Below, piece by piece: positions 32,414 through 62,541 of a stretch of DNA of 64,000 bases (positions are counted from its first letter, which is position 1; the number at the start of each line of letters is the position of its first letter). The notes under the pieces were generated by a model. It was not told where the DNA came from. It did not search any database and saw only the letters and a list, made by a program, of their open reading frames with translations. Location of the stretch: positions 213 to 64,212 of the forward strand of contig CAYHBO010000004.1 of the NCBI GenBank assembly GCA_964354855.1, read 5' to 3'. The stretch is from an uncultured Pseudomonadota bacterium (GTDB taxonomy: Bacteria; Babelota; Babeliae; Babelales; RVW-14). Made by a program: the position numbers and the translations under genes.

Positions 32414-33406
32414 ATGAAAAAATTATACACACTAATAACCTATGTAATCACGCTTCTGCTAGGAAGTTCTTGCTGTGCACTATCACTTAAAAGTACACAG
32501 GGATACAAAACTGATTCCCCACTATTTGCCAATGGTGACAGCATCTGTGGTTTTGTAAGCCTCAAAAAAGGATTTCAAGCAACAGGCGGCGACACCATCA
32601 CATTCGATACCGATGGCACCCTATCCGGCCCAGTAAAAGTTCACGGCGACGGTCCACTCACCATCTCTCTTGCAGGAGACTTACACCTTGGTTCAGGATT
32701 TAATCTACAAACCCCTCTTATTCTTCGTGGACACAAAACAGCTCTCGTACTTGGCGCAGCGTTACATTTACCAGCCAGCTATCCGTTAAATATTGACGGA
32801 GAAACAACCATTAATGGAATGGGTCATGAACTCTCTTCTGAAAAAGCAATTAAGATTAATGACCAAGCAAAGCTCACCCTACGCAACCTCACACTATCAA
32901 GCACCAATGATCATCTTTTTGATATGGAACCGACCGCACAAGGCGTTGAACTTAATACTGTTGTGCTTAATGTAAACGGCGTCCAAAGTTTAGTTAACGA
33001 TTTTGGAAATATCGTTATTCACAATAAAGTGACTATTCAAGGCTCGTCAGACGCTAAAATAATTTTACCTGCAAATGCAACGCTCACCATTATGCCTCAT
33101 GCTACCCTATGCATTGAAGGAGTAATATTATCATGCGAAAATACCTCCTCAGAAAATCAAATTCGTTTCATTGATGAAACATCAACCATTAATTTGAATC
33201 AAAGCTCATTTGAACTTCTTGGTAATGCCATTTTTACTAAAGGAAGAATTACCTGCAACAACGAAGTAATTTTAAATGTCACAGCAGAAAGAAGTCTCAT
33301 CTTTGGCGATGGAGAAAATAAAAAAAATAACTTTAATTTAATGTTGCTCGGCGGGACATCAGTCAAACTTGATGGCAGCGGCATCATTATTGATCGTTCA
33401 GTATAA
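32414..33406 (+). CDS. Secreted hypothetical protein, beta-helix-like repeats; first gene of the glycosylation island
   Basis: Signal peptide MKKLYTLITYVITLLLGSSCCA. Recurrent short beta-strand motifs (LTLRNLTLSS, VVLNVNG, VTIQGSS, LTIMPHATLCIEG). No catalytic motif recognised. Confidence 0.5.
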   Translation: MKKLYTLITYVITLLLGSSCCALSLKSTQGYKTDSPLFANGDSICGFVSLKKGFQATGGDTITFDTDGTLSGPVKVHGDGPLTISLAGDLHLGSGFNLQTPLILRGHKTALVLGAALHLPASYPLNIDGETTINGMGHELSSEKAIKINDQAKLTLRNLTLSSTNDHLFDMEPTAQGVELNTVVLNVNGVQSLVNDFGNIVIHNKVTIQGSSDAKIILPANATLTIMPHATLCIEGVILSCENTSSENQIRFIDETSTINLNQSSFELLGNAIFTKGRITCNNEVILNVTAERSLIFGDGENKKNNFNLMLLGGTSVKLDGSGIIIDRSV

Positions 33407-33431
33407 TTACTCAGGCAATAAAGGACTAATC

Positions 33432-34643
33432 ATGATCTTTTTAAAATACTATCGCATAGCAAGCGTAGCTTTCTTATTTTTTTTCCCCAACATAAACACA
33501 TTACCAATCACTGACAACAACCCCCCATCGATTCTGCATCTACACTTTAAATGTCCCGATCCAGGTGGCATTGAATCTCATTTAATTGGCCTCAATAAAA
33601 TTTTCAATGAAAAAGGCATCAAAAATATTGTTCTTACCAGTAAATATTCCACCTTTTTGATTGATGCACTCAACCAGCCAGCACAAGAAAATGGCAAGTC
33701 TTGCCGAACTTTTGATCATCCTTTATTCGATCCAATTAACACTGACATACAAGCAATCTATGAAAAAGATAATGTTGCCGTTATCGTCAGTAATTGGCCC
33801 GGAGGATTAAATTCAAGCGTCAATTTTGCAGAACACTTTCCCGTTAAACTTGTCTATATGCATCATAATTTTGTTCATGATTTTGATGATACTGAAATAG
33901 AGAACCTCAATAAAACAAATGGCATTCTTGCGGTATCTCCAATAGCTGCGGCTTATTTTAAAGAATTATCTAATTCCGAAAAAATCCAAGTCAAAAATAT
34001 AGAACATATGGCGCCATTTTGGGATGAAGACAAATATCTCACCTATCAACTAAAGTATACAAAAAAGGAATTTTTCAAGAACACATTCAATCTTGATATC
34101 ACTGATGATTATCCAATCATTTGTTCAGTTGCCAACCTCTACTGGTATAAAAATCATCAGGTGCTTATCAAAGCGTTAGGCTTATTACACCATAAAGATC
34201 AAACCAAATTTCATCTTATCCTTGCAGGTGATGGCCCAGAAAGAAAAAAACTTGAACAACTCACTGCAAGTCTAAAATTAACAAACTACGTTCATTTCAT
34301 TGGAAAAACATTAGAAGTCCCAGAACTTCTTTACCATGCAGACCTTCATGTATTGCCAAGCTCTCACGAAAGTTTTGGGCTTGTACATCTTGAAGCGGCA
34401 ACCATGAAAAAACCTTTCGTTGGCGCTACAAAAACCGGCGCAGAAGGATTTATTCAACAGGGCATCACCGGATTTATTTTTGAAAATAACAATGCACAAG
34501 ATCTCGCAGAAAAATTAAAGATATTACTTAATGACTCAACATTACGAAAAACCATGGGAGAAAAAGCGTTTACCTATGTACGTCAGCATTATGCAAATAA
34601 AGTTATCTTTGATAAGTGGGTAGACTTTTTAGGAAAAATTTAG
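33432..34643 (+). CDS. GT4-like (group 1) glycosyltransferase with N-terminal signal/anchor, paralog 1
   Basis: SD aaggac before ATG 33432. MIFLKYYRIASVAFLFFFPN. GT-B C-terminal signature LPSSHESFGLVHLEAATMKKPFVGATKTGAEGFIQQGITGFIF. Confidence 0.8.
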   Translation: MIFLKYYRIASVAFLFFFPNINTLPITDNNPPSILHLHFKCPDPGGIESHLIGLNKIFNEKGIKNIVLTSKYSTFLIDALNQPAQENGKSCRTFDHPLFDPINTDIQAIYEKDNVAVIVSNWPGGLNSSVNFAEHFPVKLVYMHHNFVHDFDDTEIENLNKTNGILAVSPIAAAYFKELSNSEKIQVKNIEHMAPFWDEDKYLTYQLKYTKKEFFKNTFNLDITDDYPIICSVANLYWYKNHQVLIKALGLLHHKDQTKFHLILAGDGPERKKLEQLTASLKLTNYVHFIGKTLEVPELLYHADLHVLPSSHESFGLVHLEAATMKKPFVGATKTGAEGFIQQGITGFIFENNNAQDLAEKLKILLNDSTLRKTMGEKAFTYVRQHYANKVIFDKWVDFLGKI

Positions 34644-36701
34644 ATGAGAACAAGTAAGATTGTTTTTTTGCTAAGCATTTTTTTTGTGGTTCACGCCTAC
34701 GCTGAAGGACCAAAGTTCCTTAACCTTCACTATCGATTTCCATCACAAGGAGGTCTCGAATCACACCTCCTTATGTTTAATAAAGTTTTTGAACAACATC
34801 AGGTCTCGAACACTCTTCTGACCAGTCAACATTCAACATGGTTAGTAAAAAATATTAATCTTCCACCAAGCCATTATGGCCCCACCTGTCGCACATACCA
34901 TCATGAGGGACTCAATCCAAGCATTTTTGATATCATTAACACCTGTAAAGATCTACACCCATCAACCATCATATGCAACTGGATGGATCAGTTACCAAAT
35001 TGCATTAAGGCAGCTAAAAATCATTCCGCCCATACTATCTACATGCACCACACTCCCAAAGATAGTTTTACGGCTGATGAAATCATGCAGCTTAATCAAA
35101 CTAACGGCATTATTACGGTCTCTCCAACACTTGCCATGCATCTTAAAAAATTACAAGAAACAGGAGTGATAACGGTAAAACACTTAGAACACATAGCACC
35201 ATTTTGGGATGAAGACCAATTTTTAGGGTTCAAGCCAACACGCTCAAAAAAAGATTTTTTTATCAACCAGTTACAATTGAATATTCCCGATGACTCCCCT
35301 GTCATCTGTTCAGTAGCTAACTTGTACTGGTATAAAAATCATAAACTTCTTTTACATGCTATTGATCAACTTATTCACAAGAGACAAAAGAAATTTCATG
35401 TCATTCTTGCCGGTGATGGATCACGTAAAAATGAGCTTATAACGCTAACACGAGAGCTTAACTTAACCGACTATGTCCATTTTGTTGGCAAGATACACGA
35501 GGTTCCAGAACTTCTGTATCATGCAGATTTTCATGTATTACCAAGTTCTAATGAGCCTTTTGGACTTACCCACCTTGAAGCCGCAACCATGAAAAAACCT
35601 TTTGTCGGCGCAACAGAAACAGGAGCTGCAGAATTTATCCAACATGGAGTCACCGGATTTATTTTTGAAAACAACAATGCCCAAGATCTTGCTGATACCT
35701 TAGAAAAACTCCTTGATAATCCAGCACTTTGTAAAATCATGGGAGAAAATGCCTATACCTTTGTTCACCAAAACTACTCAAACGAAGCTCTCTTTAAGAA
35801 ATGGATGATATTTTTAAAGCAGATGGAAGCGGCTGATGCATCAATCACACAGCAAATAACTCCTCAACCAGAGAATATTGATCATATTACCATAGCAATT
35901 CTCGCTAAAGATATGGCTCACGTACTCCCTTTATACCTCAGCTGCATTGAACAACAAACCTGGCCTAAAAATAAAACGTATCTTTATATTCGCACAAACA
36001 ATAACAAAGATAATACAATAGACCTGTTAAAAGCATGGATGAATCAAGTTGGGAGCCAGTATGCTGGTATTTATTTTGACGATACCGATACAAAAGAACG
36101 TGTAGAGAAATATGGCATCCATCAATGGAACTCAGAGCGATTTAGAGTTCTAGGCAAAATTCGCCAAGACTCCGTAACTTGGGCCCATGAGCACAAATCT
36201 CATTATTTTGTTGCCGACTGTGATAATTTTATTAGACCGGATACTATTGAGGTTCTCATGAATACTAACCTCCCAGTTATTGGACCATTACTGCGAAGAA
36301 ACGACAGTAATGAAAATTATGATTGCTTTGAACATGGACCGTCAACGTTTCATGTTCTTCCTCCAAGTGCTCCACAGTACTGGAGACCGGACAATCCATT
36401 ACATACCATACTCGTAAAACAAGAAATGAGAGGATTGATAAAAGTCCCGATCATACACTGCACCTACCTGATAAGACATGAATACCTCGATCAAGTCAGC
36501 TATGACGACAACACTGGCCGTTGGGAATTTGCTATCTTCAGCGACACCTTAAATAAACAAGGAATCCCTCAGTATGTTGATACCCGTGAAGTGTATGGTT
36601 ATCTTACCAGAGCTGAAAACGGAACTGAACTTGTAAATTGGCTTACAGAACTAAAGAGTGGCCCATGGCTGAAGAAAACATTGGCAAGGATTACTCTTTA
36701 A
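34644..36701 (+). CDS. Bifunctional fusion: GT4-like domain + C-terminal GT-A domain resembling the N-terminal domain of collagen galactosyltransferase (COLGALT)
   Basis: Signal MRTSKIVFLLSIFFVVHAYA. Residues 1-~395 are paralogous to the neighbouring GT4 genes. Residues ~400-685 carry ITIAILAKDMAHVLPLYL...DNT...HYFVADCDNFIRPDT...VPIIHCTYLI. Confidence 0.75.
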   Translation: MRTSKIVFLLSIFFVVHAYAEGPKFLNLHYRFPSQGGLESHLLMFNKVFEQHQVSNTLLTSQHSTWLVKNINLPPSHYGPTCRTYHHEGLNPSIFDIINTCKDLHPSTIICNWMDQLPNCIKAAKNHSAHTIYMHHTPKDSFTADEIMQLNQTNGIITVSPTLAMHLKKLQETGVITVKHLEHIAPFWDEDQFLGFKPTRSKKDFFINQLQLNIPDDSPVICSVANLYWYKNHKLLLHAIDQLIHKRQKKFHVILAGDGSRKNELITLTRELNLTDYVHFVGKIHEVPELLYHADFHVLPSSNEPFGLTHLEAATMKKPFVGATETGAAEFIQHGVTGFIFENNNAQDLADTLEKLLDNPALCKIMGENAYTFVHQNYSNEALFKKWMIFLKQMEAADASITQQITPQPENIDHITIAILAKDMAHVLPLYLSCIEQQTWPKNKTYLYIRTNNNKDNTIDLLKAWMNQVGSQYAGIYFDDTDTKERVEKYGIHQWNSERFRVLGKIRQDSVTWAHEHKSHYFVADCDNFIRPDTIEVLMNTNLPVIGPLLRRNDSNENYDCFEHGPSTFHVLPPSAPQYWRPDNPLHTILVKQEMRGLIKVPIIHCTYLIRHEYLDQVSYDDNTGRWEFAIFSDTLNKQGIPQYVDTREVYGYLTRAENGTELVNWLTELKSGPWLKKTLARITL

Positions 36702-36862
36702 TTTTCCCATCAAAAACCCTTTATCTTTCAAGTAATCATATTCAATTTGAAAACATTGTTGATATTTATCTTAAATAATAGGTAAGATCAACCCTGATGG
36801 TAATTATAACTAATAATTACAAACTATTTATTTGATAAATAAGCGGTAAGAAAAAGAGTGCT

Positions 36863-38113
36863 GTGATGCAAAAGCTCCACTTCGTTTCGCTCCTAACCAT
36901 GAGCGCCTTCCTTACTATCACCTTGACAACAGACCCTTTAACACTAATACCACTTGATATAAATCCCACCATTCTCCAGCAGAATAAAAAGCAGGCTCTT
37001 CTAAATATCCATTACAATGTTCCCTCTCCTGGCGGCATAGAAACACATTTATTGATTTTTAATAAGCTTTTTGCCCAACAGGCCATCCCTCATACATTAC
37101 TTACCAGTAAACACTCTACGTGGATTGTTAATACCATAAATCAACCAGCAAATCCTTATGGCCTACATTGCCATCTATACAATCATGATGAAGTAAATCC
37201 AACATCAACCGATATCCTTAACACATGCAAAGAAAAACAAATATCCACCATAATCTGTAACTGGGAAGGCCCCCTATTAGATGCAAGCCTTGATGCTGCC
37301 AAAACTCACCCAACAAAACTTATCTTTGTACATCATAATTTTAAAGAAGATTTTACCGATCAAAACATTGAAAAATTCAACCAGCTTAGCGCCATTGTGG
37401 CGGTTTCCCCAGTTGTAACCGAGTCTTTACATCGATTACAAAAATCGGGACGCTTACAAGTAAAAAATATAATGCACATCTCACCTTTTTGGGATGAAGA
37501 CAAATTTTTAACGTTCAAACCAACACGATCAAAACAAGATTTCTTTAAACAAAAATTCAATCTCACCTTCACCGATAATGATCCCGTAATCTGTTCTGTA
37601 GCAAATTTATATTGGTGCAAAAATCAACAATTACTCTTACATGCCGCTGCAAACCTACTCCATACCAAAAATAAAAAGTTTCACCTCATTCTAGCGGGGG
37701 AAGGCGACGATCTCCCGAAGCTAGAACAATTAGCAAGAGAGCTAAACATAACATCCTGTACTCACTTTGTTGGAAGAACCTTAGAAGTCCCTGAACTTCT
37801 GCATCATATAGATTTACACGTACTACCAAGCTCTCACGAAGGGTTTGGGCTCGTACAACTTGAAGCAGCTATGATGAAGAAACCATTTTTAGCCGCAACA
37901 AAAACAGCCGCTGAAAGAATTATTCAACATGGTATTACCGGATTTATTTTTGAAAATAACAACGCCCAAGACTTGGCAAATAAATTGGAAACATTAATCG
38001 ATAATCCAAAACTGCGTCAAACCATGGGACAGAATGCATACAATTTTGTACGCCAACATTATGCAAACAAAATTCTCTTTAACAAATGGATAGATTTATT
38101 GGAGAAAATTTAA
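36863..38113 (+). CDS. GT4-like glycosyltransferase with N-terminal signal/anchor, paralog 3
   Basis: GTG 36863 / ATG 36866. LPSSHEGFGLVQLEAAMMKKPFLAATKTAAERIIQHGITGFIF. Shares FWDEDKFL and ICSVANLYW with its neighbours. Confidence 0.8.
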   Translation: MMQKLHFVSLLTMSAFLTITLTTDPLTLIPLDINPTILQQNKKQALLNIHYNVPSPGGIETHLLIFNKLFAQQAIPHTLLTSKHSTWIVNTINQPANPYGLHCHLYNHDEVNPTSTDILNTCKEKQISTIICNWEGPLLDASLDAAKTHPTKLIFVHHNFKEDFTDQNIEKFNQLSAIVAVSPVVTESLHRLQKSGRLQVKNIMHISPFWDEDKFLTFKPTRSKQDFFKQKFNLTFTDNDPVICSVANLYWCKNQQLLLHAAANLLHTKNKKFHLILAGEGDDLPKLEQLARELNITSCTHFVGRTLEVPELLHHIDLHVLPSSHEGFGLVQLEAAMMKKPFLAATKTAAERIIQHGITGFIFENNNAQDLANKLETLIDNPKLRQTMGQNAYNFVRQHYANKILFNKWIDLLEKI

Positions 38114-39315
38114 TGAAAATTATCATAAGCGTAATCATATTACTCTATCCGCTCACAATAACAGCAACCGTACAACCATTAAAATCCCAAAATATTTTAA
38201 ACCTTCATTACCGATTTCCTCATCCAGGCGGCATAGAAACACATGTACTTATGGCTAATAAAGTTTTTGCTCAACGCAACACACCTCACACACTCCTCAC
38301 AAGTAAACATTCTGAATGGATAGTAAACCGTATTAACCAACCAAAATCACCTTATGGCCCACCATGCTATCTTTTAGGACATGATGAATTTTTTCCAACC
38401 CCTACAGATGTTCTACAAGCCTGCCAACAAAAACAAATCTCCACCATCATTTGTAATTGGATTGGACACTTAGATCAAGGAATCGAATCTACTAAAACTC
38501 ATCCTGCAGATTTAATTTATATGCATCACGTACCGGTAGATATTTTTAGCCCCATTGAACTTCAAAAAATTAATCAAGCAAAAGGCATCGTTGCCGTTTC
38601 ACCGATCATGACTAATCAATTTAAAACACTCCAAAAAATGGGCATCATTACCATCAAGCATATTGAACATATCGGCCCATTCTGGGATGAAGATAAATTT
38701 TTACAATGCAAACCAACTCGATCACGACAAGAATTTTTTAAACAGGCATTCAACCTTGATATCCCCACCGACCTCCCACTCGTCTGCTCCGTTGCAAATT
38801 TTGCCTGGTATAAAAACCATCCATTACTCTTAAAAGCGGTAAGTATTCTTATCAATCAAAAACAGAAAAAATTTCACCTCATCCTTGCCGGCGAGGGGGT
38901 GGAAAAGAAAAATTTAGAAGCACTAATCAATGAACTTAATATTGCACCCTATGTCCATTTGCTTGGGAAAACACAAGAAGTTCCTGAGCTTCTTCACCAT
39001 GTAGATATCCATGTACTTGCAAGTTCTAATGAGCCTTTCGGGCTAACCCATGTTGAAGCAGCTACTATGAAAAAACCTTTTATTGCAGCAACAGGAACCG
39101 GAGCTTCCACATTTATCAACCATGGCATTACCGGTTTTATTTTTGAGAACAACAATGCGCAAGACCTTGCCAATAAACTTGAAATTGTTATTGATAACAA
39201 AGTATTTCGTGAAAGAATGGGACAAGACGCTTTTACGTTTGTTCGCAATAATTACTCAAATCAAGTTCTTTTTAACAAATGGATGAACTTCTTGAAGAAA
39301 ATAGAGGGGCACTAA
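38113..39315 (+). CDS. GT4-like glycosyltransferase with N-terminal signal/anchor, paralog 4
   Basis: TAATG overlap with the previous gene, after ggagaaaa. MKIIISVIILLYPLTITA. LASSNEPFGLTHVEAATMKKPFIAATGTGASTFINHGITGFIF. Confidence 0.8.
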   Translation: MKIIISVIILLYPLTITATVQPLKSQNILNLHYRFPHPGGIETHVLMANKVFAQRNTPHTLLTSKHSEWIVNRINQPKSPYGPPCYLLGHDEFFPTPTDVLQACQQKQISTIICNWIGHLDQGIESTKTHPADLIYMHHVPVDIFSPIELQKINQAKGIVAVSPIMTNQFKTLQKMGIITIKHIEHIGPFWDEDKFLQCKPTRSRQEFFKQAFNLDIPTDLPLVCSVANFAWYKNHPLLLKAVSILINQKQKKFHLILAGEGVEKKNLEALINELNIAPYVHLLGKTQEVPELLHHVDIHVLASSNEPFGLTHVEAATMKKPFIAATGTGASTFINHGITGFIFENNNAQDLANKLEIVIDNKVFRERMGQDAFTFVRNNYSNQVLFNKWMNFLKKIEGH

Positions 39316-53025: not shown

Positions 53026-53958
53026 ATGATCATAAAAGTACTATTTTTAGCAATTTATTTTTTAAGTAATTTCTTACATGCCAATCTTGAACCTTACTTA
53101 AAACCAGCGCTGAACAAAGGCAATAACCACACGATTGAAGGCATTGATTTCATTTATATGATCAACCTTGATAAACGCCCTGAAAAATTTCTCATAAGCA
53201 TCGAGATTCTCGCTCCTTATAACATTACCCCTTACCGATTCTCTGCCGTTAATGGTTGGGAGCTTCCGGTAGAAACACTCAATAGCATTGGCGTAAAGTA
53301 TGATAAGTCCATGAAGAAAAATTTAACAGGCAGCGCTTACCTACCAAAAAACAAAGGGTGTCGATCTGATGAAAAAATGCATACTCCAGGAAGAAATTAT
53401 GTATGCCATACTCTCTCTCCAGGAGCAATAGGATGCGCACTAAGCCATATCTCAGTTCTCCATGATGCTTATAAATCAAATTACCAACGCATCTGGGTTA
53501 TGGAAGATGATATCGATGTAAAGAGAAATCCTCATCTCATCACAGCCTACATAGAAAAGCTTAACGCATTAGTTGGTAAAGATAATTGGGATATTTTATT
53601 TACCGATCAAGATTACAAAGATAACGATACCGGAGTCCCGGTCCTCTGCAAAAGTTATAATCAACGACCTAATTTTACCCCATTAAACCCTAAACGTTTT
53701 AAGCAAAGAATAAAGGTCGATGATGATTTTATAAAAACAGGCGCACGCTATGGGGCACATTCAATGATTATTCAAAAATCTGGCATAAAAAAACTCCTCG
53801 ATTTTTTCAATCACTATAAAATTTTCTGGCCCTATGACATAGATTATTACGCTATTAATGACATACAGCTTTACACCGTAAGCGATGATATCGTTTCAAA
53901 CACCCCAAAGTCAGGGTCAGACAATGGTAAACCTCGTTATCAGCAAGAGAAAGGATAA
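53026..53958 (+). CDS. GT25-family glycosyltransferase with signal peptide, paralog 1
   Basis: MIIKVLFLAIYFLSNFLHA. GIDFIYMINLDKRPEKF, YRFSAVNGWEL, GAIGCALSHISVLHDAY, WVMEDDIDV. Confidence 0.85.
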   Translation: MIIKVLFLAIYFLSNFLHANLEPYLKPALNKGNNHTIEGIDFIYMINLDKRPEKFLISIEILAPYNITPYRFSAVNGWELPVETLNSIGVKYDKSMKKNLTGSAYLPKNKGCRSDEKMHTPGRNYVCHTLSPGAIGCALSHISVLHDAYKSNYQRIWVMEDDIDVKRNPHLITAYIEKLNALVGKDNWDILFTDQDYKDNDTGVPVLCKSYNQRPNFTPLNPKRFKQRIKVDDDFIKTGARYGAHSMIIQKSGIKKLLDFFNHYKIFWPYDIDYYAINDIQLYTVSDDIVSNTPKSGSDNGKPRYQQEKG

Positions 53959-54033: not shown

Positions 54034-55017
54034 ATGAAGATAATTTCTCATATTTTTAAATACACACTTTTGTTATTAATATTATCAAGCAAGCAATGTT
54101 CAGGATTCGTCCTCTTGCAAGACCTCCTTGCCCTAAGCCAACAAGGACTCGTCCCTCCAAAAAGCCCTGTCGAATTCAAAAATCAAGCTATTAACTTTCT
54201 GGCATTAAGCAAAAATCTTGGATTTGAATTTCCTTCAAAATTAGCAAGATACTATCAAACCATAGACCGCTCCGTTGATAAAGACTGTATTTACAAAGAT
54301 GTTTACGATCAAACCGTTGATAATCGAAACATAGATGGTTGGTTTGATAAAAGACTCATTATCCTTCTTGCTATCATTGATAATTTTCAGTCAAAAACTA
54401 ACATCTCAGGAAACGTTGCAGAAATTGGAGTATGGCAAGGAAGATCATTTATCCCACTCATACTTCTTACACGCAACGATGAATGCGCCTTAGCAATCGA
54501 CTGTTTTGAACAGTACGAGTCAAATCTCGATAATTCAGGTGGAAGCGCTTGCAGTACCAGTATATTTATCAAAAATGTCACTTCCTATTGCCAAGACCTT
54601 ACTAAATTACGAAAGATCAAAGGTGATTCTTTTAAATTCACCGCACAGGATTATCTTAAAGAAACAACGAATAATCAAGGAATTAGAATATTCAGTATTG
54701 ATGGCTGTCATGAAGCTCTACCTACTGAACGCGATATGGAAAACGCATTTAAGTGTTTAGTTGATGGCGGAATTGTAATTATGGATGATTATTTTCATGA
54801 AACATGGCCTGGCGTTTCTGAAGGGACTAATCGCTTTATGCTAAAAAATGAAGGTAAATTAAAACCATTTTTTATTGGTTGGAATAAAATATTTTTTGCG
54901 AAGCCTGACCATGTCAAAGAATATTATGAACTCATAAAAAGTGTTATCGTCCCAAAAGACTTAAACATAAAGAAATTTTTTGGAGTTGATACACTTATCT
55001 ATGACCCAAGACCTTAA
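54034..55017 (+). CDS. Class I SAM-dependent methyltransferase (Methyltransf_24/CmcI-like) with signal/anchor
   Basis: SD gaggag 5 nt before ATG 54034. GNVAEIGVWQGRSFIPL, IFSIDGCHE, LVDGGIVIMDDYFHETWPGV. Confidence 0.7.
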   Translation: MKIISHIFKYTLLLLILSSKQCSGFVLLQDLLALSQQGLVPPKSPVEFKNQAINFLALSKNLGFEFPSKLARYYQTIDRSVDKDCIYKDVYDQTVDNRNIDGWFDKRLIILLAIIDNFQSKTNISGNVAEIGVWQGRSFIPLILLTRNDECALAIDCFEQYESNLDNSGGSACSTSIFIKNVTSYCQDLTKLRKIKGDSFKFTAQDYLKETTNNQGIRIFSIDGCHEALPTERDMENAFKCLVDGGIVIMDDYFHETWPGVSEGTNRFMLKNEGKLKPFFIGWNKIFFAKPDHVKEYYELIKSVIVPKDLNIKKFFGVDTLIYDPRP

Positions 55018-55032: not shown

Positions 55033-55950
55033 ATGAAGATTGCTTGGTTATTATTATTTTTTTTCATACAAAGCACAATTACTCCAACAGACCTAACAAA
55101 GTATTTTAAAAAACCAATCAATAAATCAAGCAATCACACCATGAAAGGGATTGATTTTATCTATATGATTAATCTCGATCAACGACCTGAAAAATTTAAA
55201 AGTTGCACCAAGCAATTATCATATTATGACATTCACCCGTACCGATTTTCTGCGGTTAATGGTTGGGAACTTTCACTTGAAACTATTAATGATCTTGGTG
55301 TAAAATATGATAAAACAATGCCAAAGGATCTCTTGGCAACCTGTTTTCTTCCTCAGAATAAGGGAACTCCTCTTGATGAAATCATGGGGATTAAAGAAAG
55401 AACTTATTTCCATCATCACGTTGAAAAAGGAACTATTGGCATAATACTTAGCCATCTCTCAGTATTATACGATGCATATAAATCAAAATATGACTGTATT
55501 TGGGTCATGGAAGATGATATTGAAGTAATTAGAGATCCACGCCTCATAAGTCTCTTCATCTATAAACTTGATGCATTGGTCGGTAAAAAAAACTGGGACA
55601 TTCTCTTCACAGATAAAGATACTAAAGATAGAAATGGCAATTATGTTCCCTGCTTAAGTTACGCTCCTCGACCAAATTTTACACCAAAAAATCCAGAACG
55701 TTTTGCTCTTCGAGAACAAATAAGTCCTGACTTTATGAAAATAGGCGCTCGTTATGGAACTTATTCAATGATAGTAAAAAGATCAGCAATTAAAAAAATT
55801 CTTGATTTCTCTAATCAATACAAGTTATTTCTTCCTTATGACATGGATTTTTATTTACCCAATAATATAAAAATTTACACTGTTACTAATGATATCGTAT
55901 CAACCCAGCCTCAAGCTCCTTCTGACAATGCAACGCAGGGATATAAATAA
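55033..55950 (+). CDS. GT25-family glycosyltransferase with signal peptide, paralog 2
   Basis: GIDFIYMINLDQRPEKF, YRFSAVNGWELSLETINDLGVKYD, GTIGIILSHLSVLYDAY, WVMEDDIEV. Confidence 0.85.
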   Translation: MKIAWLLLFFFIQSTITPTDLTKYFKKPINKSSNHTMKGIDFIYMINLDQRPEKFKSCTKQLSYYDIHPYRFSAVNGWELSLETINDLGVKYDKTMPKDLLATCFLPQNKGTPLDEIMGIKERTYFHHHVEKGTIGIILSHLSVLYDAYKSKYDCIWVMEDDIEVIRDPRLISLFIYKLDALVGKKNWDILFTDKDTKDRNGNYVPCLSYAPRPNFTPKNPERFALREQISPDFMKIGARYGTYSMIVKRSAIKKILDFSNQYKLFLPYDMDFYLPNNIKIYTVTNDIVSTQPQAPSDNATQGYK

Positions 55951-55989: not shown

Positions 55990-56928
55990 ATGAAGATTCT
56001 AAAATTACTATTGCTTTTTCTTATCTACAACTCAATCGCATCTGCTGATCTGACGAAACATTTTAAAAAAATAGCCGCTCAAGATAAATCAGGCAATCAT
56101 TCTATGAAAGGCATTGATTTTATTTACACCATCAATCTTAATCAACGACCTGAAAAATTCGAAAATTGCACAAAACAACTCACCCCTTTCGGTATTCATC
56201 CCTATCGCTTTTCAGCCGTCAATGGCTGGGAACTCTCCCTGGAAACCATCAATGATGTTGGGGTCCACTATGACCCATCTATGAAAAAAGGTATGTGGGG
56301 AACAAGTTATTTAATTGAAGATAAGGGAAAAGAATTCCATGAGATCATGCATATTAAAGACAGAACTTATTTTTGTCACTGTACCTCTCGCGGAGCCATC
56401 GGAATCGTATTAAGCCATCTCTCTGTACTCAATGACGCCTATACATCAGGATATGAAAGAGTTTGGATCATGGAAGATGACATCGAAATACTCAGAGACC
56501 CTCGTCTGATTTGCTCATCAATCGAAGAACTTGATACTCTCGTTGGAAAAGATGGTTGGGATTTTCTCTATACTGATCAGGACACACGAGACAATAACAC
56601 TGGTCAATATGTTCCATGCTTAGGCTACGCTCCTCGACCAGACATGACACCACAGAATACAGACCGTTATGTCAAAAGAACGGCAATTAGCTCTAATCTA
56701 ATGCAAATTGGAGCTCGCTACGGCGCCTATTCAATGATTGTACAACGATCAGGTATGAAAAAAATTCTCGATTTCTATAAAGATCATAACATGTTCCTTC
56801 CTTATGACATGGACTTATTCACACCTCATAACGTAAAACACTTCTGTATCATCGATAGCATCATATCGCATAAACCTGGATCTCCTACCGATAATGGCGA
56901 ACCTCGTTATGAAAAAAATCAAAAGTAA
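55990..56928 (+). CDS. GT25-family glycosyltransferase with signal peptide, paralog 3
   Basis: SD agggag before ATG 55990. GIDFIYTINLNQRPEKF, GAIGIVLSHLSVLNDAY, WIMEDDIEI, tail TDNGEPRYEKNQK. Confidence 0.85.
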   Translation: MKILKLLLLFLIYNSIASADLTKHFKKIAAQDKSGNHSMKGIDFIYTINLNQRPEKFENCTKQLTPFGIHPYRFSAVNGWELSLETINDVGVHYDPSMKKGMWGTSYLIEDKGKEFHEIMHIKDRTYFCHCTSRGAIGIVLSHLSVLNDAYTSGYERVWIMEDDIEILRDPRLICSSIEELDTLVGKDGWDFLYTDQDTRDNNTGQYVPCLGYAPRPDMTPQNTDRYVKRTAISSNLMQIGARYGAYSMIVQRSGMKKILDFYKDHNMFLPYDMDLFTPHNVKHFCIIDSIISHKPGSPTDNGEPRYEKNQK

Positions 56929-56946: not shown

Positions 56947-57882
56947 ATGAAAATACTGAAATTATTATTACTTCTACTCATGCAACATACAATCGTATCT
57001 GCAGATCTTACTCAATATTTTAAAAAGCTAACGCCTCAAGATAAAATTGGCAATCATTCAATGAAAGGAATTGATTTTATCTACATGATCAATCTCGATC
57101 AACGCCCTGAACGTTTTGAAGGATGTACTAAACAATTGTCACCTTATGACATTCACCCTTATCGTTTTTCAGCCGTCAATGGTTGGGAACTCTCTTTAGA
57201 AAAGCTCAATGAACTTGGTGTTAAATATGATAAAACCATGAGACAAAATCTATGGGGCACCTACTACATAGCAGGAAGCAAAGGGGAACAAAATCATGAA
57301 GTTATGCAGGTTGAAAATAGAAATTATTTTAGCCACTGTATGGCTCCAGGCCCTGTCGGAATCGCGTTAAGCCATTTATCAGTACTCCATGATGCATATG
57401 AATCAGGTCATAACAGAGTTTGGGTCATGGAAGATGATATTACTGTACATAAAAACCCACATCTCATCAGTGATCTGATTGAGCAACTTGATAACTTAGT
57501 TGGCAAAGATGGATGGGATATCCTTTTTACCGATCAAGACATTCTCGATGGAAATGGTAAATACATTCCTTGCTTGGGCTATGCATATCGACCAAATTTT
57601 AACCCAGACAACCCAGAACGATTTGCTCAACGAACCCTAATCTCTCCTACATTTATGAAAATTGGAGCTCGTTATGGTGCTCACTCTATGATTGTACAAA
57701 GACATGCAATGAAGAAGCTTCTAGACTTTTTCAATCAATACAACTTATTTTTACCGATAGATATGGATATGTTTCTACCCAATAATATGAATTATTACTG
57801 CCTAACAAGCGACATTGTATCTAACACACCAGGAGCATCTTCTGATAATGGCGCCCCAAATTATAAAAAAAATCAAAAATAA
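56947..57882 (+). CDS. GT25-family glycosyltransferase with signal peptide, paralog 4
   Basis: MKILKLLLLLLMQHTIVSA. GIDFIYMINLDQRPERF, WVMEDDITV, tail SDNGAPNYKKNQK. Confidence 0.85.
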   Translation: MKILKLLLLLLMQHTIVSADLTQYFKKLTPQDKIGNHSMKGIDFIYMINLDQRPERFEGCTKQLSPYDIHPYRFSAVNGWELSLEKLNELGVKYDKTMRQNLWGTYYIAGSKGEQNHEVMQVENRNYFSHCMAPGPVGIALSHLSVLHDAYESGHNRVWVMEDDITVHKNPHLISDLIEQLDNLVGKDGWDILFTDQDILDGNGKYIPCLGYAYRPNFNPDNPERFAQRTLISPTFMKIGARYGAHSMIVQRHAMKKLLDFFNQYNLFLPIDMDMFLPNNMNYYCLTSDIVSNTPGASSDNGAPNYKKNQK

Positions 57883-57900
57883 AATAGTCAGGACAAATTC

Positions 57901-58848
57901 ATGAAAATTTTAAATTTATTAATATTCATACTCATACAAAATACAATCATAACTGCAGATCTTACACAATATTTTAAAAAACCAACGACCCAAGATAAAG
58001 CTAATAACCACTCCATGCCGGGAATTGATTTTATCTACATGATCAATCTCGACCAACGCCCTGAAAGATTTGAAGGTTGCACTAAACAATTATCTCCTTA
58101 TAACATTCATCCTTATCGTTTTTCAGCCGTCAATGGTTGGGAATTATCCCTAGAAACTATCAATGAACTTGGGGTTAAATACCATCATAGCTACACTAAA
58201 AACATACCAAAAAATTTATGGGGCACTTACTACGTCGTAGGAAGCAAGGAAGCAAAACAACATGAAATTATGCAAACTGAGAACCGAACTTATTTTTGTC
58301 ACTGCACAACACCAGGAACAATCGGCATAGCGCTAAGCCACCTCTCAGTCCTTCATGATGCATATGAATCAAATCATAACAGAATATGGGTCATGGAAGA
58401 CGACATAACCGTAAAACAAAATCCTCATCTTATAAGTACCATGATTGATAAACTTGATCACTTAGTTGGTAAAGATGGTTGGGATATCTTCTTTACCGAT
58501 AAAGATATTATAGATAACAACTTCAAATACGTTCCTTGCTTCAGCTTTGCACCACGACCAAATTTTATCCCTCCTCACCAAGAACGGTTTGCTCAACGAA
58601 CCCAAGCCTCTCCTGAATTTATGAAGATAGGAGCTCGTTATGGGGCCCATTCTATGATTATACAAAGACATGCCGTAAAGAAGCTTCTTGATTTTTTTAA
58701 TCAGTATAATTTGTTTCTTCCTTATGACATGGACATGTTCATGCCTGACAATATGAATAACTACTGCATAACAGATTGTATTGTATCAAACACGCCAGGA
58801 GCATCTTCTGATAATGGCGCCCCTCGTTATAAAGAAAATCAAAAATAA
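57901..58848 (+). CDS. GT25-family glycosyltransferase with signal peptide, paralog 5
   Basis: MKILNLLIFILIQNTIITA. GIDFIYMINLDQRPERF, WVMEDDITV, tail SDNGAPRYKENQK. Confidence 0.85.
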   Translation: MKILNLLIFILIQNTIITADLTQYFKKPTTQDKANNHSMPGIDFIYMINLDQRPERFEGCTKQLSPYNIHPYRFSAVNGWELSLETINELGVKYHHSYTKNIPKNLWGTYYVVGSKEAKQHEIMQTENRTYFCHCTTPGTIGIALSHLSVLHDAYESNHNRIWVMEDDITVKQNPHLISTMIDKLDHLVGKDGWDIFFTDKDIIDNNFKYVPCFSFAPRPNFIPPHQERFAQRTQASPEFMKIGARYGAHSMIIQRHAVKKLLDFFNQYNLFLPYDMDMFMPDNMNNYCITDCIVSNTPGASSDNGAPRYKENQK

Positions 58849-58875
58849 ATATTTTATAGGGGAAGTGGAGAAGTT

Positions 58876-59808
58876 ATGAAAATTTTAAAATTATTATTAC
58901 TTGTTATCATGCAAAATTCAATCACCTACGCTGATCTATCTCACTATTTAAAAAAACTAACGCCACAAGATAAATCAGGTAACCATTCGATGAAAGAAAT
59001 TGATTTTATTTACACCATCAATCTTGATCAACGACCTGAAAAATTTGCAACATGTACCAAACAATTATCCCTCTATGACATTCATCCTTATCGATTTTCT
59101 GCAGTTAATGGATGGGAACTGTCTCTAGAGACAATCAATGAGCTCGGCATAAAATATAATAAATCTATGAGGAATAACTTATGGGGAACCTGTTATCTCC
59201 TTGATGAAAAAGGTGAACCACACCATGAAATCATGCACGTTGAGGGTAGAAATTATTTTTCTCACTGCTTAGCCCGCGGACCCATAGGTATTACACTAAG
59301 TCACCTTTCCATCCTCTATGATGCTTACACCTCAGGATATAAACGGATTTGGGTTATGGAAGATGACATTGACGTTATACAAAATCCTCATCTTATCAGT
59401 ACTTTAATTGAAAAACTTGATGCATTAGTTGGAAAAAATGGCTGGGATTTCCTCTTTACCGATAAAGATACAAAAAACGATAACGGTCATTACGTCCCTT
59501 GCAACGCAGCAGCAGCTCGACCAGACTTTACTCCAATCAAAGGGGAACGATTCAGACATCGAGAGCAAGTAAACCCTGACTTTATCAAAGTAGGGGCACG
59601 TTATGGCGGATATTCAATGATTATACAAAGATGCGGCATGAAAAAGATTCTCGATTTTTATGCAGAACGTAATATATTTCTCCCTTACGATATGGAATAT
59701 ATTTTACCTGATGATATTAAATTATATACCGTCACAAAAGACATCGTATCAACAAAACCTGGATCTATTTCTGACAATGGAGCTCCCCGCTATAAAGAAA
59801 ATAAATAA
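58876..59808 (+). CDS. GT25-family glycosyltransferase with signal peptide, paralog 6
   Basis: MKILKLLLLVIMQNSITYA. EIDFIYTINLDQRPEKF, WVMEDDIDV, tail SDNGAPRYKENK. Confidence 0.85.
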   Translation: MKILKLLLLVIMQNSITYADLSHYLKKLTPQDKSGNHSMKEIDFIYTINLDQRPEKFATCTKQLSLYDIHPYRFSAVNGWELSLETINELGIKYNKSMRNNLWGTCYLLDEKGEPHHEIMHVEGRNYFSHCLARGPIGITLSHLSILYDAYTSGYKRIWVMEDDIDVIQNPHLISTLIEKLDALVGKNGWDFLFTDKDTKNDNGHYVPCNAAAARPDFTPIKGERFRHREQVNPDFIKVGARYGGYSMIIQRCGMKKILDFYAERNIFLPYDMEYILPDDIKLYTVTKDIVSTKPGSISDNGAPRYKENK

Positions 59809-59822
59809 TTCAGGAAGCCTCC

Positions 59823-60758
59823 ATGAAAGTTATAATCTTATTATTTCTTGTTCTCATCAAAAACACGGTCACCTATGCTGATCTTACTCACTATTTTAAA
59901 AAACTAACGCCTCAAGAAAAAATTGGCAATCACTCCATAAAGGGAGTTGATTTTATCTACACCATCAACCTTGATCAACGACCTGAAAAATTTGCAACAT
60001 GCACTACCCAACTCACTCCTTATGGAATTTACCCTTATCGATTTTCAGCCGTCAATGGGCAAGAATTACCACTTAAAACAATTACCGAACTTGGTGTTCA
60101 ATATGATCAATCTATGAGAAAAGATTTGTGGGGCACCTGTTATCTCCTTGATAACAAAGGAAAATGGCACCATGAAATTATACATGTTCAAAACAGACAT
60201 TATTTTACTCACTACATGGCACGCGGTCCTATAGGTATCGTATTAAGTCACCTCTCGGTACTCTATGATGCCTATACCTCGGGATATGAACGCATTTGGG
60301 TTATGGAAGATGACATTGACATCATACAAAACCCACATCTCATCTCATCACTCATTGATAAACTTGATCAACTCATTGGTAAAGATGGGTGGGATATTCT
60401 ATTCACCGATAAAGACACAAAAGACCGGAATGGAAATCGCGTTTCTTGCTTTAGTTATGCACCACGACCAAACTTCACTCCTTCAAATGAAGAACGCTTT
60501 GCGTTTAAAGAACAGATAAGTCCTGATTTTACTAAAATGGGTGCCCGCTATGGAACTTACTCCATGATCATACAACGAGCTGCCATGAAAAAGATCCTCG
60601 ATTTTTTTAATCAATACAACCTATTTCTTCCCTATGATATGGACTTGTTTATGCCAAATAATATGAATTTCTTTTGCGTTACTGAAGATGTTGTATCAAC
60701 AGACCCTCAAGCGCTTTCTGATAATAGAACTCTTAATCGTATAAAGCATCTATTTTAA
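59823..60758 (+). CDS. GT25-family glycosyltransferase with signal peptide, paralog 7 (altered C-terminus overlapping the convergent gene)
   Basis: GVDFIYTINLDQRPEKF, YRFSAVNGQELPL, WVMEDDIDI. The tail reads SDNRTLNRIKHLF instead of SDNGxPRYKxNQK and overlaps 60733..62439(-) by 26 nt. Confidence 0.8.
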   Translation: MKVIILLFLVLIKNTVTYADLTHYFKKLTPQEKIGNHSIKGVDFIYTINLDQRPEKFATCTTQLTPYGIYPYRFSAVNGQELPLKTITELGVQYDQSMRKDLWGTCYLLDNKGKWHHEIIHVQNRHYFTHYMARGPIGIVLSHLSVLYDAYTSGYERIWVMEDDIDIIQNPHLISSLIDKLDQLIGKDGWDILFTDKDTKDRNGNRVSCFSYAPRPNFTPSNEERFAFKEQISPDFTKMGARYGTYSMIIQRAAMKKILDFFNQYNLFLPYDMDLFMPNNMNFFCVTEDVVSTDPQALSDNRTLNRIKHLF

Positions 60759-62439
60759 TCCATTCTTCCGGAGTAGTATCTGGCGAGTACTTTGCATAAG
60801 CCGTCCAGTAAGCCGGCCTTACCACTTTTTTATCTGGATTTTGGTTTAGCCAAGCAGCCCACCACCCGAAGCTCGAATTCGTAATAATATTATGCTTACA
60901 AAAGCTAAGCAGATATAAATCAATATAATATGGCGGTTCTTCATCTTCTAGAAATACAACATTTTTTGCCCATGACGGCATATTTTCACGAGCAAATTGT
61001 ATGTTATTGCTACTAACCACAAATATCGATTTCTCAGGGAATAACCGCATAGCTTTATCTAAATAATCTTTGCCATACTGAGGGTAGCTCTGATCATCTT
61101 TACTAAACTCCCATTTATAATAACGAAGCTGAACACCCACCGTATGAGGGCTATCAAAGAGCCATGTATACTTTTTTTTCATATACGCCAAATCATCTTC
61201 ACATGGAGCAAATAAAGCTAATAAGCGATTACGATGGTGAGAAAAGTATTTCTCTGATTGAAAGTACCCTGCAATTTTCATGTTATCTTGGTATGGAATT
61301 TTGGTATAAGATGATGCTGGATCACGCCATTCAAAAGCAACTGTTGTTTCCGGCTTCTTTTTATTTATACGAGAAAATACATGGTTATTCAGTGGCCGAT
61401 CAAAATCCCAATCAGGAAAATATGGTTCTGCAGCATTATCCCATGCTAAAGCACATGCCGCCGCGATTTGAAAAAATTGATTGCCAAGTTGACCACAATG
61501 CCCTGCAGCCATAACAAATGACTTATTTTGCGCCTTTCCCCACATATTATTGTATTGTTCAGGATGGTGTTTTTTGATGAATGTTAGAATGTCTGTGTTG
61601 CTACACTGATTAAATGCTTCATGATGCTCATCCATGAGAATATAATTTTTTCGTTCAGCTCTTTTGAGTTGAAATTTATCTTCTCCACGCATTGAATAAT
61701 GATTAATTCTCATACATTTAGTATGTTGATTACCTTTAATCACAACTTCAGTTCTTTCTTTGCTGTAGGGAATACTCACACCATCCCCGTTATAGTAAAC
61801 ACTATTATCTAGAAGTGGAACATGATGAGGATGCCACAACGACTTCTCATCAACCAAATGTGGCTTAATAATACTTTTTCCTATCCCATTTAAAGAATGA
61901 TCTGGCAAACTACATCGTGTAAGTAAAGGAAGAACTAAATCCCCAGACTTTAATGAAACATTATTCGTCCCAAAGTTATACCAGTTAACATATATTGCAG
62001 AAGCTTCTTTAAAGTATTTATCTAAACATTCAGTAACAGTACTTTCTTGAGTTGGTAAGATAAACTCATCCAAATCAATTAAAGCTAACCATTCAGTTAT
62101 GCCTTTCGTTCTTTTTATAATATCTTTATATGCATAACCTTGATAAGAAATCAAATCTCCATTGGTTGGCCAAAGAGTTACATCTATAATTCCTTGGTCC
62201 ATGTACGGTTTTAGTACTTCTTGCCAATTATCAGTGCTATTGTCGTTATAAAGATAAAAATGTTCGACACCAACCATTCGATGGTACGTAATCCATTCAT
62301 CTAAGAAAGCTGCTTCATTCTTAAAAATAGCTCCAACAGACAATTTATAGGTATATTTTTTTGTATCAGGCTTAAGTTCTAAGCTTGCTTGAGTAATGCT
62401 TACAATAGTACTTAGCAGAGCTAAAATAATTTTCTTCAT
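60733..62439 (-). CDS. Fusion protein: N-terminal GT92-like domain + C-terminal GT11-like domain, with a single signal peptide
   Basis: Strong SD aaggag before ATG 62439. MKKIILALLSTIVSITQA. GT92 part: YKLSVGAIFKNEAAFLDEWITYHRMVGVEHFYLYNDNSTDNW, IDLDEF. GT11 part from ~61520: GQLGNQFFQIAAACALAWDN, VQLRYYKW, TNSSFGWWAAWLN. Confidence 0.8.
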   Translation of the reverse strand: MKKIILALLSTIVSITQASLELKPDTKKYTYKLSVGAIFKNEAAFLDEWITYHRMVGVEHFYLYNDNSTDNWQEVLKPYMDQGIIDVTLWPTNGDLISYQGYAYKDIIKRTKGITEWLALIDLDEFILPTQESTVTECLDKYFKEASAIYVNWYNFGTNNVSLKSGDLVLPLLTRCSLPDHSLNGIGKSIIKPHLVDEKSLWHPHHVPLLDNSVYYNGDGVSIPYSKERTEVVIKGNQHTKCMRINHYSMRGEDKFQLKRAERKNYILMDEHHEAFNQCSNTDILTFIKKHHPEQYNNMWGKAQNKSFVMAAGHCGQLGNQFFQIAAACALAWDNAAEPYFPDWDFDRPLNNHVFSRINKKKPETTVAFEWRDPASSYTKIPYQDNMKIAGYFQSEKYFSHHRNRLLALFAPCEDDLAYMKKKYTWLFDSPHTVGVQLRYYKWEFSKDDQSYPQYGKDYLDKAMRLFPEKSIFVVSSNNIQFARENMPSWAKNVVFLEDEEPPYYIDLYLLSFCKHNIITNSSFGWWAAWLNQNPDKKVVRPAYWTAYAKYSPDTTPEEWIKIDALYD

Positions 62440-62541
62440 AAATACTCCTTTCTCTAAACAATGCTGCAGAAACAGTTTCAACAGTCTCAAGAAGAGACTA
62501 TGCCATTATTTAAAATATTGTGGAAGTGAAGAATCATTCAC

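Follow-up and report, generated by a model that had tools for sequence, protein, structure and literature searches.

Can a bacterium assemble a glycan entirely outside its cytoplasm? Bacterial glycosyltransferases (GTs) that depend on nucleotide sugars are taken to work in the cytoplasm, their products then being flipped across the membrane. The question is raised by a locus on contig CAYHBO010000004.1, within a 64 kb stretch that we refer to as the window, in which 23 intact carbohydrate-enzyme genes lie between sufBD and a gene for a putative outer-membrane protein (OMP), with open reading frames (ORFs) that are packed and mostly co-directional. Assignment of every ORF of at least 100 amino acids in the region from 32.4 to 62.5 kb (Table 1) gives four GT4 enzymes, a TylF-type methyltransferase, a TOD1/MUCI70-like protein, four GT92 enzymes, one GT11, three GH130-like proteins, seven GT25 enzymes, a Methyltransf_24 protein and a GT92-GT11 fusion. 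The original prediction, made from the DNA alone, held that almost every ORF here is carbohydrate-active; this is true of the 23 enzymes, although alaS (39312-41918) interrupts the series. Our analysis suggests that these enzymes are very probably exported, and on balance we favour a reading in which they leave the cytoplasm by the Sec pathway, possibly travel further through type II secretion, and do their work outside it on nucleotide sugars and S-adenosylmethionine (SAM) taken from the host.

The case for export begins at the N-termini. All 23 enzymes, together with the neighbouring protein p330, start with a basic n-region (charge +1 to +3; GT92b at 45540, with a charge of 0, is the sole exception) followed by 10-24 uncharged residues, and most have small residues at -3 and -1, as in HAYA/EG, VSA/DL, TSA/AQ and TQA/SL; no AXA-type site was detected in GT4a or GT25g. 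Judged heuristically, these 24 proteins show the features of Sec type I signal peptidase substrates, namely a positive n-region, a core of 7-15 residues and small residues at -3 and -1. The original prediction had allowed for either Sec signals or type II anchors; since few of the hydrophobic cores have the length that anchoring in a membrane demands, cleavable Sec signal peptides describe them better. The recognisable cytoplasmic proteins encoded in the window (RNase G, GatB, MurC, a pair of aminotransferases, Tmk, HolB, SufB/D and AlaS) lack such an N-terminus, and signal-like N-termini are found on 23/23 locus enzymes against 13/25 of the remaining window ORFs (Fisher p = 9e-5). The short basic N-terminus and hydrophobic stretch noted at the outset on each enzyme are thus present throughout, lie ahead of the folds and are kept in homologues: database relatives carry signals in 114/119 cases for GT25, 103/116 for GT92 and 77/93 for the GH130-like proteins. 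Signal peptides are likewise kept in all enzyme orthologues on L136, a relative's contig that has alaS at the matching position (82% identity of AlaS), while the signal sequences themselves have diverged. From these comparisons the signals appear to be maintained by selection.

The position of these segments bears on a more conventional explanation, in which the enzymes belong to a cytoplasm-facing lipooligosaccharide (LOS), lipopolysaccharide (LPS) or capsule pathway, the N-termini are tethers or elements of the fold, and flippase, ligase and priming functions are encoded at other sites in the genome. Such a pathway would be in keeping with the presence of GT4, GT25 and GT11, which are classical LPS/LOS families (Pfam names GT25 'LPS biosynthesis protein'), with the fact that the sequence examined is 64 kb of a genome, and with a cytoplasmic DegT-type aminotransferase encoded nearby. 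We nevertheless consider it improbable, since the hydrophobic segment stands before the first strand: Pfam domains start at residues 22-60 overall (42-44 in GT25, about 35 in GT92 and 22 in the TOD1-like protein), and in the GT4 genes the GGxE motif lies downstream of the signal. We tried, and rejected, the possibility that the hydrophobic N-termini form the first strand of a Rossmann or GT-A fold; both the Pfam domains and the signal-less homologues begin after them, and a segment that precedes the catalytic fold is therefore not its first strand. Positive charge on the N-terminal side predicts an N-in, C-out orientation, most of the segments (10-17 residues) are too short to span a membrane, and the SAM methyltransferases and GH130-like proteins have them too. 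All seven GT25 genes encode an extension of about 40 residues with a signal peptide ahead of the domain, which departs from the leaderless topology of LOS enzymes. The TOD1-like protein is the sharpest case: 68/82 of its homologues begin directly at the domain (M-x-K-I-C-F-I-T-A-I-Y-G) and have no signal, whereas the window copy starts with MKKLKILILGSILFHGTSA, followed by AQP. A signal on this bacterial copy, where its closest relatives have none, is in our view the most telling single indication that export is a functional requirement.

The gene content of the locus also differs from that of a conventional pathway. Among the assigned ORFs of the region there is no Wzx or Wzy, ABC exporter, priming GT or ligase, and the locus genes include no chain-length regulator and no gene for nucleotide-sugar synthesis. 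The machinery of a classical O-antigen or capsule locus (priming polyprenyl-phosphate transferase, flippase or ABC exporter, polymerase, ligase) is thus absent in and next to the locus, in agreement with the original prediction that no such genes are present and that this is not a classical LPS or capsule locus. A DegT/DnrJ/EryC1 aminotransferase gene (20902-22149, beside tmk) encodes a PseC/LegC-like protein that scores well under the equivalog cut-offs; it lacks a signal peptide, lies 11 kb upstream and is the sole nucleotide-sugar-modifying gene seen in the window.

Comparison with L136 shows what kind of locus this is. The window and L136 share a framework of sufB, sufD, p330, GT4 genes, alaS, GH130-like genes, Methyltransf_24, GT25 and the OMP gene. 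In L136 the order up to alaS is ankyrin, sufB, sufD, p331, GT4, a GT4/GT-A fusion of 697 residues that is the counterpart of GT4b, GT4, a Methyltransf_24/pyruvyltransferase fusion and alaS; two GH130-like genes, Methyltransf_24, GT25, Methyltransf_21, GT25 and the OMP gene follow. Orthologues are 91% identical for sufB, 71% for sufD, 52.6% for p330, 64% for GT4a and 61% for Methyltransf_24, and the OMP-like product is 61% identical to residues 98-556 of a 556-residue signal-peptide protein at the same border. Against this constant frame the content varies: TylF, the TOD1-like gene, four GT92 genes, GT11, the third GH130-like gene and the GT92-GT11 fusion are found in the window alone, with seven GT25 genes as against two, while the pyruvyltransferase fusion and Methyltransf_21 are confined to L136. 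The fusion (L136 12649-14229, beside alaS) has a signal peptide and joins Methyltransf_24 to a polysaccharide pyruvyltransferase (PF04230). GC content falls to 0.32-0.35 across 42-50 kb, compared with 0.37-0.43 in the flanks, and the dip covers exactly the genes missing from L136; the segment from 42 to 49.6 kb (TylF, TOD1-like, GT92 and GT11 genes) looks like a later addition. Conserved flanks around a variable set of enzymes are the layout typical of surface-glycan loci. As far as gene order can tell, this is a conserved, strain-variable glycan-building locus and not a mobile island, because its framework and flanks are syntenic in L136 and only the content varies. The description of the region as an island, in the original prediction, is accordingly not one that we retain: there is no integrase or transposase between 32.4 and 62.5 kb and no tRNA in the whole window, and the locus is not absent from relatives.

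The identity of the organism is relevant here, since the named homologues of the GT25 and GT92 enzymes, at 55-60% identity, come from Estrella lausannensis and from Chlamydiales and Chlamydiota metagenome-assembled genomes (MAGs). The best named relatives of AlaS are from Candidatus Babeliales/TM6/Dependentiae (54-62% identity; 80-85% for unnamed ones). A chlamydial origin of the contig, as the names of the GT25 and GT92 matches might suggest, was rejected on this affinity of AlaS and on synteny with the related contig. We assign the organism, an obligate intracellular parasite of protists, to the Dependentiae (TM6/Babeliales), by sequence affinity, because of AlaS and of a Babela-like array of signal-peptide ankyrin genes. 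A further alternative, that the locus was acquired recently as a mobile island, or that chlamydial DNA entered a Dependentiae bin through a chimeric assembly, would explain the chlamydial names and the GC dip at 42-50 kb. It is very improbable and largely refuted, given that a Dependentiae-type alaS lies inside the locus, that flanks and framework are syntenic in L136, an independent contig, that NCBI/ENA and a Logan assembly both contain this contig, and that integrase, transposase and tRNA genes are lacking and only the 42-49.6 kb segment looks later-added. The GT25 and GT92 enzymes are about 56% identical across the two phyla, the same as AlaS within one phylum, which suggests horizontal exchange of the enzymes.

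The ankyrin array itself consists of six tandem small ankyrin-repeat genes (24322-28449) with Sec-type signals ending in M or AM (e.g. MRMKYLGILLTIGIGLSCTEIYAM), and more small signal-peptide ORFs follow on the minus strand (28461-29926). By analogy with Babela, whose pattern it resembles, the array is presumed to encode secreted host effectors. In Babela massiliensis 79/126 ankyrin proteins have signal peptides, and the sole secretion system found is type II (PMC4378268). In Chromulinavorax, 44% of coding sequences carry signal peptides, no metabolic pathway is complete, ATP is imported and replication takes place in the host cytoplasm (PMC6561590).

The family assignments first read from the sequence agree almost line by line with Pfam. 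The four GT4 enzymes score 123-137 bits against a PF00534 cut-off of 26.4 (E 1e-35 to 1e-40) and match BshA and TarM-type GT4 enzymes in the PDB (E 1e-14 to 1e-18); in GT4b, residues 408-655 align with residues 8-252 of human COLGALT1 (E 7e-23) and retain the DxD motif. TylF is unambiguous (PF05711, 297.9 bits over profile positions 27-264 of 264). The five GT92 domains, in four genes and the fusion, reach 88-114 bits against a PF01697 cut-off of 23 (E 8e-25 to 1e-32); an alignment of the five copies shows D133-x-D135-E136 to be invariant, and the nearest solved structure is a plant galactan synthase at an E value of only 0.004. Within GT92a, positions 44936-45083 hold an in-frame tandem repeat of 42 bp (14 residues) in about 3.5 copies (TRF score 157); it belongs to an insertion of about 88 residues that the other four GT92 copies lack, and this insertion may be a contingency or variable region. 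The two GT11 domains, in the gene and the fusion, score 69.8 and 64.9 bits (cut-off 23.9) over profile positions 106-297 of 298 only. The seven GT25 enzymes score 28-60 bits against a PF01755 cut-off of 24, over profile positions 3-197 of 199, and all 23 aligned members, paralogues among them, have E162-D163-D164 (within WVMEDDI); the GT25 family profile matches the COLGALT1 catalytic domain at E 4e-6, in a likeness confined to about 55 residues. One GH130-like copy scores 29.6 bits against a cut-off of 26 and the other two 18.7-18.8, which is individually weak; 18/18 members tested match PF04041, and a profile of the 18 sequences matches beta-1,2-mannobiose and oligomannan phosphorylases in the PDB (E 4e-10), a profile search being used in place of an AF2 model from the three paralogues that reached a pLDDT of only 38. 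From sequence profiles the assignment to the GH130/GT108 superfamily of beta-mannoside phosphorylases and transferases is weak for any single protein and solid for the family. As the ORFs are all intact and the GT25 EDD and GT92 DxDE motifs are invariant across paralogues, the enzymes look active.

The TOD1-like protein deserves separate treatment, in view of its unusual kinship. Its PF04765 match is weak (21.4 bits, exactly at the cut-off, over profile positions 218-313 of 314 only), and it is a member of a large giant-virus and eukaryote-type family with 642 representatives; PF04765 is the plant TOD1/MUCI70 family of rhamnogalacturonan I galacturonic acid transferases. Over its whole mature length the window protein shares 55-61% identity with genes from more than 80 giant-virus contigs, while 185,579 GTDB species genomes yielded six matching loci, among them one at 55% and another at 41%. 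The glycosyltransferases and sugar-modifying enzymes that giant viruses themselves encode act in the host cytoplasm, independently of the endoplasmic reticulum (ER) and Golgi. We considered and rejected a giant-virus origin of the whole toolkit, as close viral relatives exist for the TOD1-like gene only: viral GT92 relatives reach just 27-38% identity, no close giant-virus relatives were found for the GH130-like proteins, GT25 or the COLGALT1-N-like domain, and the genes that neighbour it in the window are missing from the viral TOD1 loci. The term 'eukaryote-type', originally applied to the whole battery, fits the TOD1-like protein and the COLGALT1-N-like domain, whose clearest relatives are outside bacteria; it does not fit GT4, GT25, GT11 and GH130, which are common bacterial families, and the GT25 and GT92 clades found here have hundreds to thousands of bacterial members.

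How might such a set of enzymes work? We propose that all GTs, GH130-like enzymes and methyltransferases of the locus are made with a cleavable Sec signal and would go to the periplasm, and that some would move onward by type II secretion, the sole such system on record for a cultured representative of this phylum. Donors would come from the host, as UDP-Gal or UDP-Glc, GDP-Fuc, GDP-Man or Man-1-P, and SAM, and the sugars would be added and methylated stepwise on an extracytoplasmic acceptor with neither carrier lipid nor flippase. Assembly outside the cytoplasm would account for the missing priming transferase, flippase, polymerase and ligase. The families present (GT92 and GT25 for beta-Gal or Glc, GT11 for alpha-1,2-Fuc, GH130-like for beta-mannoside, retaining GT4, and two O-methyltransferases) point, at family level, to a glycan that is fucosylated, galactosylated, mannosylated and methylated. 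The GT92-GT11 fusion recurs in the database (P0285, P0288, P0290, P0307), and at the same family level this recurrent pairing would fit a Fuc-alpha-1,2-Gal-type epitope. Export, host-derived donors, acceptor and glycan composition are all things that we infer. If the pyruvyltransferases of L136 and Estrella are exported as well, phosphoenolpyruvate would also be needed outside the cytoplasm.

The acceptor could belong to the bacterium or to its host. The original prediction offered both readings, as surface glycosylation outside the cytoplasm and as exported enzymes that work on host or vacuolar glycans, and both are compatible with our evidence. On the host-directed view the enzymes are secreted effectors that leave by type II secretion or in vesicles after Sec export and remodel host proteins, lipids or vacuolar glycans, in the manner of the Legionella and clostridial glucosyltransferases. 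The same signals occur on ankyrin-repeat proteins that are presumed effectors (PMC4378268); GT92, COLGALT1-N-like and TOD1/MUCI70 enzymes are best known from the eukaryotic secretory pathway, the TOD1-like gene comes from a giant-virus pool active in the host cytoplasm, and GT25 sequences 55-60% identical across two phyla suggest a conserved and possibly host acceptor. Known glycosylating effectors, however, are single enzymes that add one sugar each, whereas 20 GT domains with methyltransferases (and a pyruvyltransferase in L136) resemble a multi-step glycan pathway; the layout is that of a surface-glycan locus, flanked by an OMP gene here and by autotransporter genes in a Chlamydiales counterpart, and the enzymes have no fused targeting or host-interaction domains. 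We think a battery of host-directed effectors rather unlikely. Judging by the way the locus is laid out and by the OMP and autotransporter genes beside it or its counterpart, an acceptor in the bacterial envelope is more likely than one in the host, though the lean is modest. The substrate candidate of the original prediction, a protein of 1998 residues, gains no support: it contains neither a collagen-like nor a Ser/Thr-rich tract and matches no family. It is one of three signal-peptide proteins (673, 663 and 1998 residues) encoded at 9550-20473 that have no Pfam or NCBIfam match; the largest is rich in G, N, S, T and D and looks beta-helical, and all three are likely surface or outer-membrane proteins.

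Several considerations weigh against extracytoplasmic synthesis from host donors. The signal calls are heuristics based on charge, hydrophobicity and an AXA-type site, and about half of the proteins of the window and of the phylum are signal-like, which makes the feature less discriminating here than it would be elsewhere. The DegT/PseC-like gene shows, as far as its sequence affinity goes, that some cytoplasmic nucleotide-sugar chemistry exists, and a flippase, a ligase or a nucleotide-sugar pathway could be encoded elsewhere in the genome, outside the 64 kb. To our knowledge every well-studied LPS system keeps its GT4, GT25 and GT11 enzymes in the cytoplasm. That nucleotide sugars and SAM are available in the periplasm or the host compartment is an assumption, and the acceptor is putative. 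Extracytoplasmic action is nonetheless the reading that we favour. A bolder form of it would be a 'periplasmic Golgi' shared by the Dependentiae and environmental Chlamydiota, with complete, carrier-free Leloir assembly outside the cytoplasm and a toolkit swapped horizontally among these two groups and giant viruses: nucleotide sugars and SAM from the host cytosol would enter by diffusion, Sec-exported GT-A and GT-B enzymes, GH130-like proteins and methyltransferases would build complex glycans, fucosylated and methylated, directly on envelope or host acceptors, and signal peptides would be a feature of the bacterial copies. This we put forward tentatively, as a possibility with the odds against it.

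Parts of the scheme have precedents. The LOS alpha-2,3-sialyltransferase of Neisseria gonorrhoeae, Lst, resides in the outer membrane and uses host CMP-N-acetylneuraminic acid (CMP-NANA) (PMC4324315). As an extracytoplasmic Leloir transferase that acts on the bacterium's own surface glycan with a scavenged host donor, Lst is the closest functional precedent; it is, however, one enzyme of another GT family that adds one terminal sugar to LOS built in the cytoplasm, as against 23 enzymes including methyltransferases. Chlamydia trachomatis secretes GlgA, which takes host UDP-glucose in the inclusion (PMC4829429). Here too an obligate intracellular bacterium exports Leloir enzymes and makes a glycan from a host nucleotide sugar outside its cytoplasm, but export is by type III secretion, the product is the storage glycan glycogen, and the enzymes are ordinary glycogen enzymes with no battery of GT25, GT92, GT11 and methyltransferases. 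The giant-virus machineries of chloroviruses and mimiviruses resemble the locus in having their own GTs and through the TOD1-like kinship at 55-61%; they differ in that the viral TOD1 homologues are mostly signal-less, and the TOD1-like family alone is closely viral. In the Lewis toolkit of Helicobacter pylori, a GT25 beta-1,4-galactosyltransferase, the GT11 enzyme FutC and the GT10 enzymes FutA/B make fucosylated N-acetyllactosamine epitopes on LPS that mimic the host; these enzymes are leaderless and cytoplasmic and feed a flippase/ligase pathway. The window shares GT25 and GT11 with this toolkit, and the Chlamydiales counterpart has GT10 too, with the window enzymes known by family only. 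Human COLGALT1 (GLT25D1), the ER-lumenal collagen galactosyltransferase, shares a 245-residue GT-A alignment and has a signal peptide, as do the window proteins; here its two domains belong to different proteins, one domain being fused to a GT4, and neither a collagen-like acceptor nor a lysyl hydroxylase was seen in the window. O-antigen and capsule loci of the classical Wzx/Wzy or ABC type are likewise GT clusters between conserved flanks whose content varies among relatives; the window locus lacks their priming, flippase, polymerase and ligase genes, and every enzyme has an export signal. Full-text literature searches turned up no account of a battery of exported Leloir GTs in Dependentiae or Chlamydiae. 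Cases of one GT that works outside the cytoplasm, or is secreted, and draws on host donors are already known; a full periplasmic assembly line, if confirmed, would be considerably more novel.

The same enzymes recur, in other combinations, elsewhere. Homologues number more than 2000 for GT25 and 638 for GT92b. A cluster in a Chlamydiales MAG contains Methyltransf_24, GT25, GT10, GT92, GT11, two DUF1796 proteins, a GT2-TPR protein and a split GH130-like gene; every protein has a signal peptide, the cluster adjoins autotransporter genes, and GT92 and GT11, fused in the window, are neighbouring genes. DUF1796 signal-peptide proteins occur in chlamydial clusters of exported GTs (L223 7323-8054 and 11792-12505; L002 9143-9877) and none is encoded in the window. 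In Estrella, GT25, Methyltransf_24 and GH130-like genes are contiguous and a PS_pyruv_trans gene lies near GT25 genes; three GT25 proteins, the GH130-like protein and PS_pyruv_trans have signals, while the N-terminus of Methyltransf_24 is not clearly signal-like. A universal module of GT25, Methyltransf_24 and GH130-like genes was considered on the strength of L136 and Estrella and rejected, as GT25 is nearby in only 4/40 long metagenomic GH130-like loci. Distant GH130-like proteins (26-36% identity) in the metagenome loci L137-L216 are usually present as two or three tandem signal-peptide copies, with GT25 and GT92 absent, and these relatives appear to form a separate, uncharacterised exported family.

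The borders of the locus also carry features of their own. The first conserved gene, p330, has no match in Pfam or NCBIfam; a single-sequence AF2 model is a beta-helix (pLDDT 69, pTM 0.75), for which Foldseek against the PDB gave nothing significant (best E 0.86). At the right border, the OMP ORF as listed encodes 452 residues from a TTG start, has no signal peptide and is about 98 N-terminal residues short of its L136 orthologue; either the gene is interrupted near 63900, or its true start lies past a frameshift or the end of the window. Far from the locus, a polysaccharide deacetylase gene (PF01522, 4971-5840, minus strand) encodes a protein with a signal-peptide-like N-terminus, which would make it a further exported enzyme that modifies carbohydrates.

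Table 1. Genes of the glycan locus and its borders, in window coordinates; a slash marks the predicted cleavage site.
Feature	Position	Strand	Evidence and remarks
sufB and sufD-like	30092-32265	+	PF01458; conserved left border; cytoplasmic, no signal peptide
p330	32414-33406	+	330-residue signal-peptide protein, predicted parallel beta-helix; first conserved gene of locus
GT4a	33432-34643	+	PF00534 E 2e-39; signal peptide, then GT-B glycosyltransferase
GT4b with C-terminal COLGALT1-N-like GT-A domain	34644-36701	+	PF00534 E 5e-40; 685 residues; signal peptide MRTSKIVFLLSIFFVVHAYA/EG
GT4c	36866-38113	+	PF00534 E 3e-37; signal peptide
GT4d	38113-39315	+	PF00534 E 1.5e-35; signal peptide; start ATG 38113 in Shine-Dalgarno context, MKIIISVIILL...
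alaS	39312-41918	-	housekeeping gene embedded in locus, no signal peptide; taxonomic marker
TylF-type O-methyltransferase	42337-43128	+	PF05711 E 7e-89; signal peptide
TOD1/MUCI70-like (DUF616) putative glycosyltransferase	43234-44103	+	21.4 bits; giant-virus-like; signal peptide MKKLKILILGSILFHGTSA/AQP
GT92a	44221-45447	+	PF01697 E 8.5e-29; signal peptide
GT92b	45540-46508	+	PF01697 E 4e-32; signal peptide
GT92c	46571-47557	+	PF01697 E 1e-32; signal peptide
GT11 (alpha-1,2-fucosyltransferase family)	47606-48499	+	PF01531 E 3e-19; signal peptide
GT92d	48601-49560	+	PF01697 E 6e-31; signal peptide
Three tandem GH130-like beta-propeller proteins	49689-50792, 50807-51910, 51923-53014	+	PF04041 E 9e-4 to 4.5e-7; each with signal peptide
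GT25a	53026-53958	+	PF01755 E 6e-16; signal peptide
Methyltransf_24-type SAM methyltransferase	54034-55017	+	PF13578 E 1.7e-11; signal peptide
GT25 tandem, first three	55033-55950, 55990-56928, 56947-57882	+	PF01755; MK, hydrophobic stretch, A/DL
GT25 tandem, last three	57901-58848, 58876-59808, 59823-60758	+	PF01755; MK, hydrophobic stretch, A/DL
GT92-GT11 fusion, convergent	60733-62439	-	PF01697 E 8e-25, PF01531 E 1e-17; signal peptide MKKIILALLSTIVSITQA/SL
OMP-like gene	62542-63900	-	right border; no Pfam or NCBIfam match

If our reading is correct, a pathway of 23 enzymes operating outside the cytoplasm would break a textbook rule, and a metabolically minimal parasite would be outsourcing the synthesis of its glycans. 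It would also give a function to very large and unstudied families of signal-peptide proteins in Dependentiae and Chlamydiota, which number over 2000 for GT25, over 600 for GT92 and in the hundreds for the GH130-like group. The TOD1-like gene is a concrete case of gene flow linking giant viruses and intracellular bacteria. These proposals are testable in cultured Babela, Vermiphilus, Chromulinavorax and Estrella, and surface glycans that mimic those of the host, if they exist, could control how the bacteria are taken up by amoebae and other protists and survive in them.

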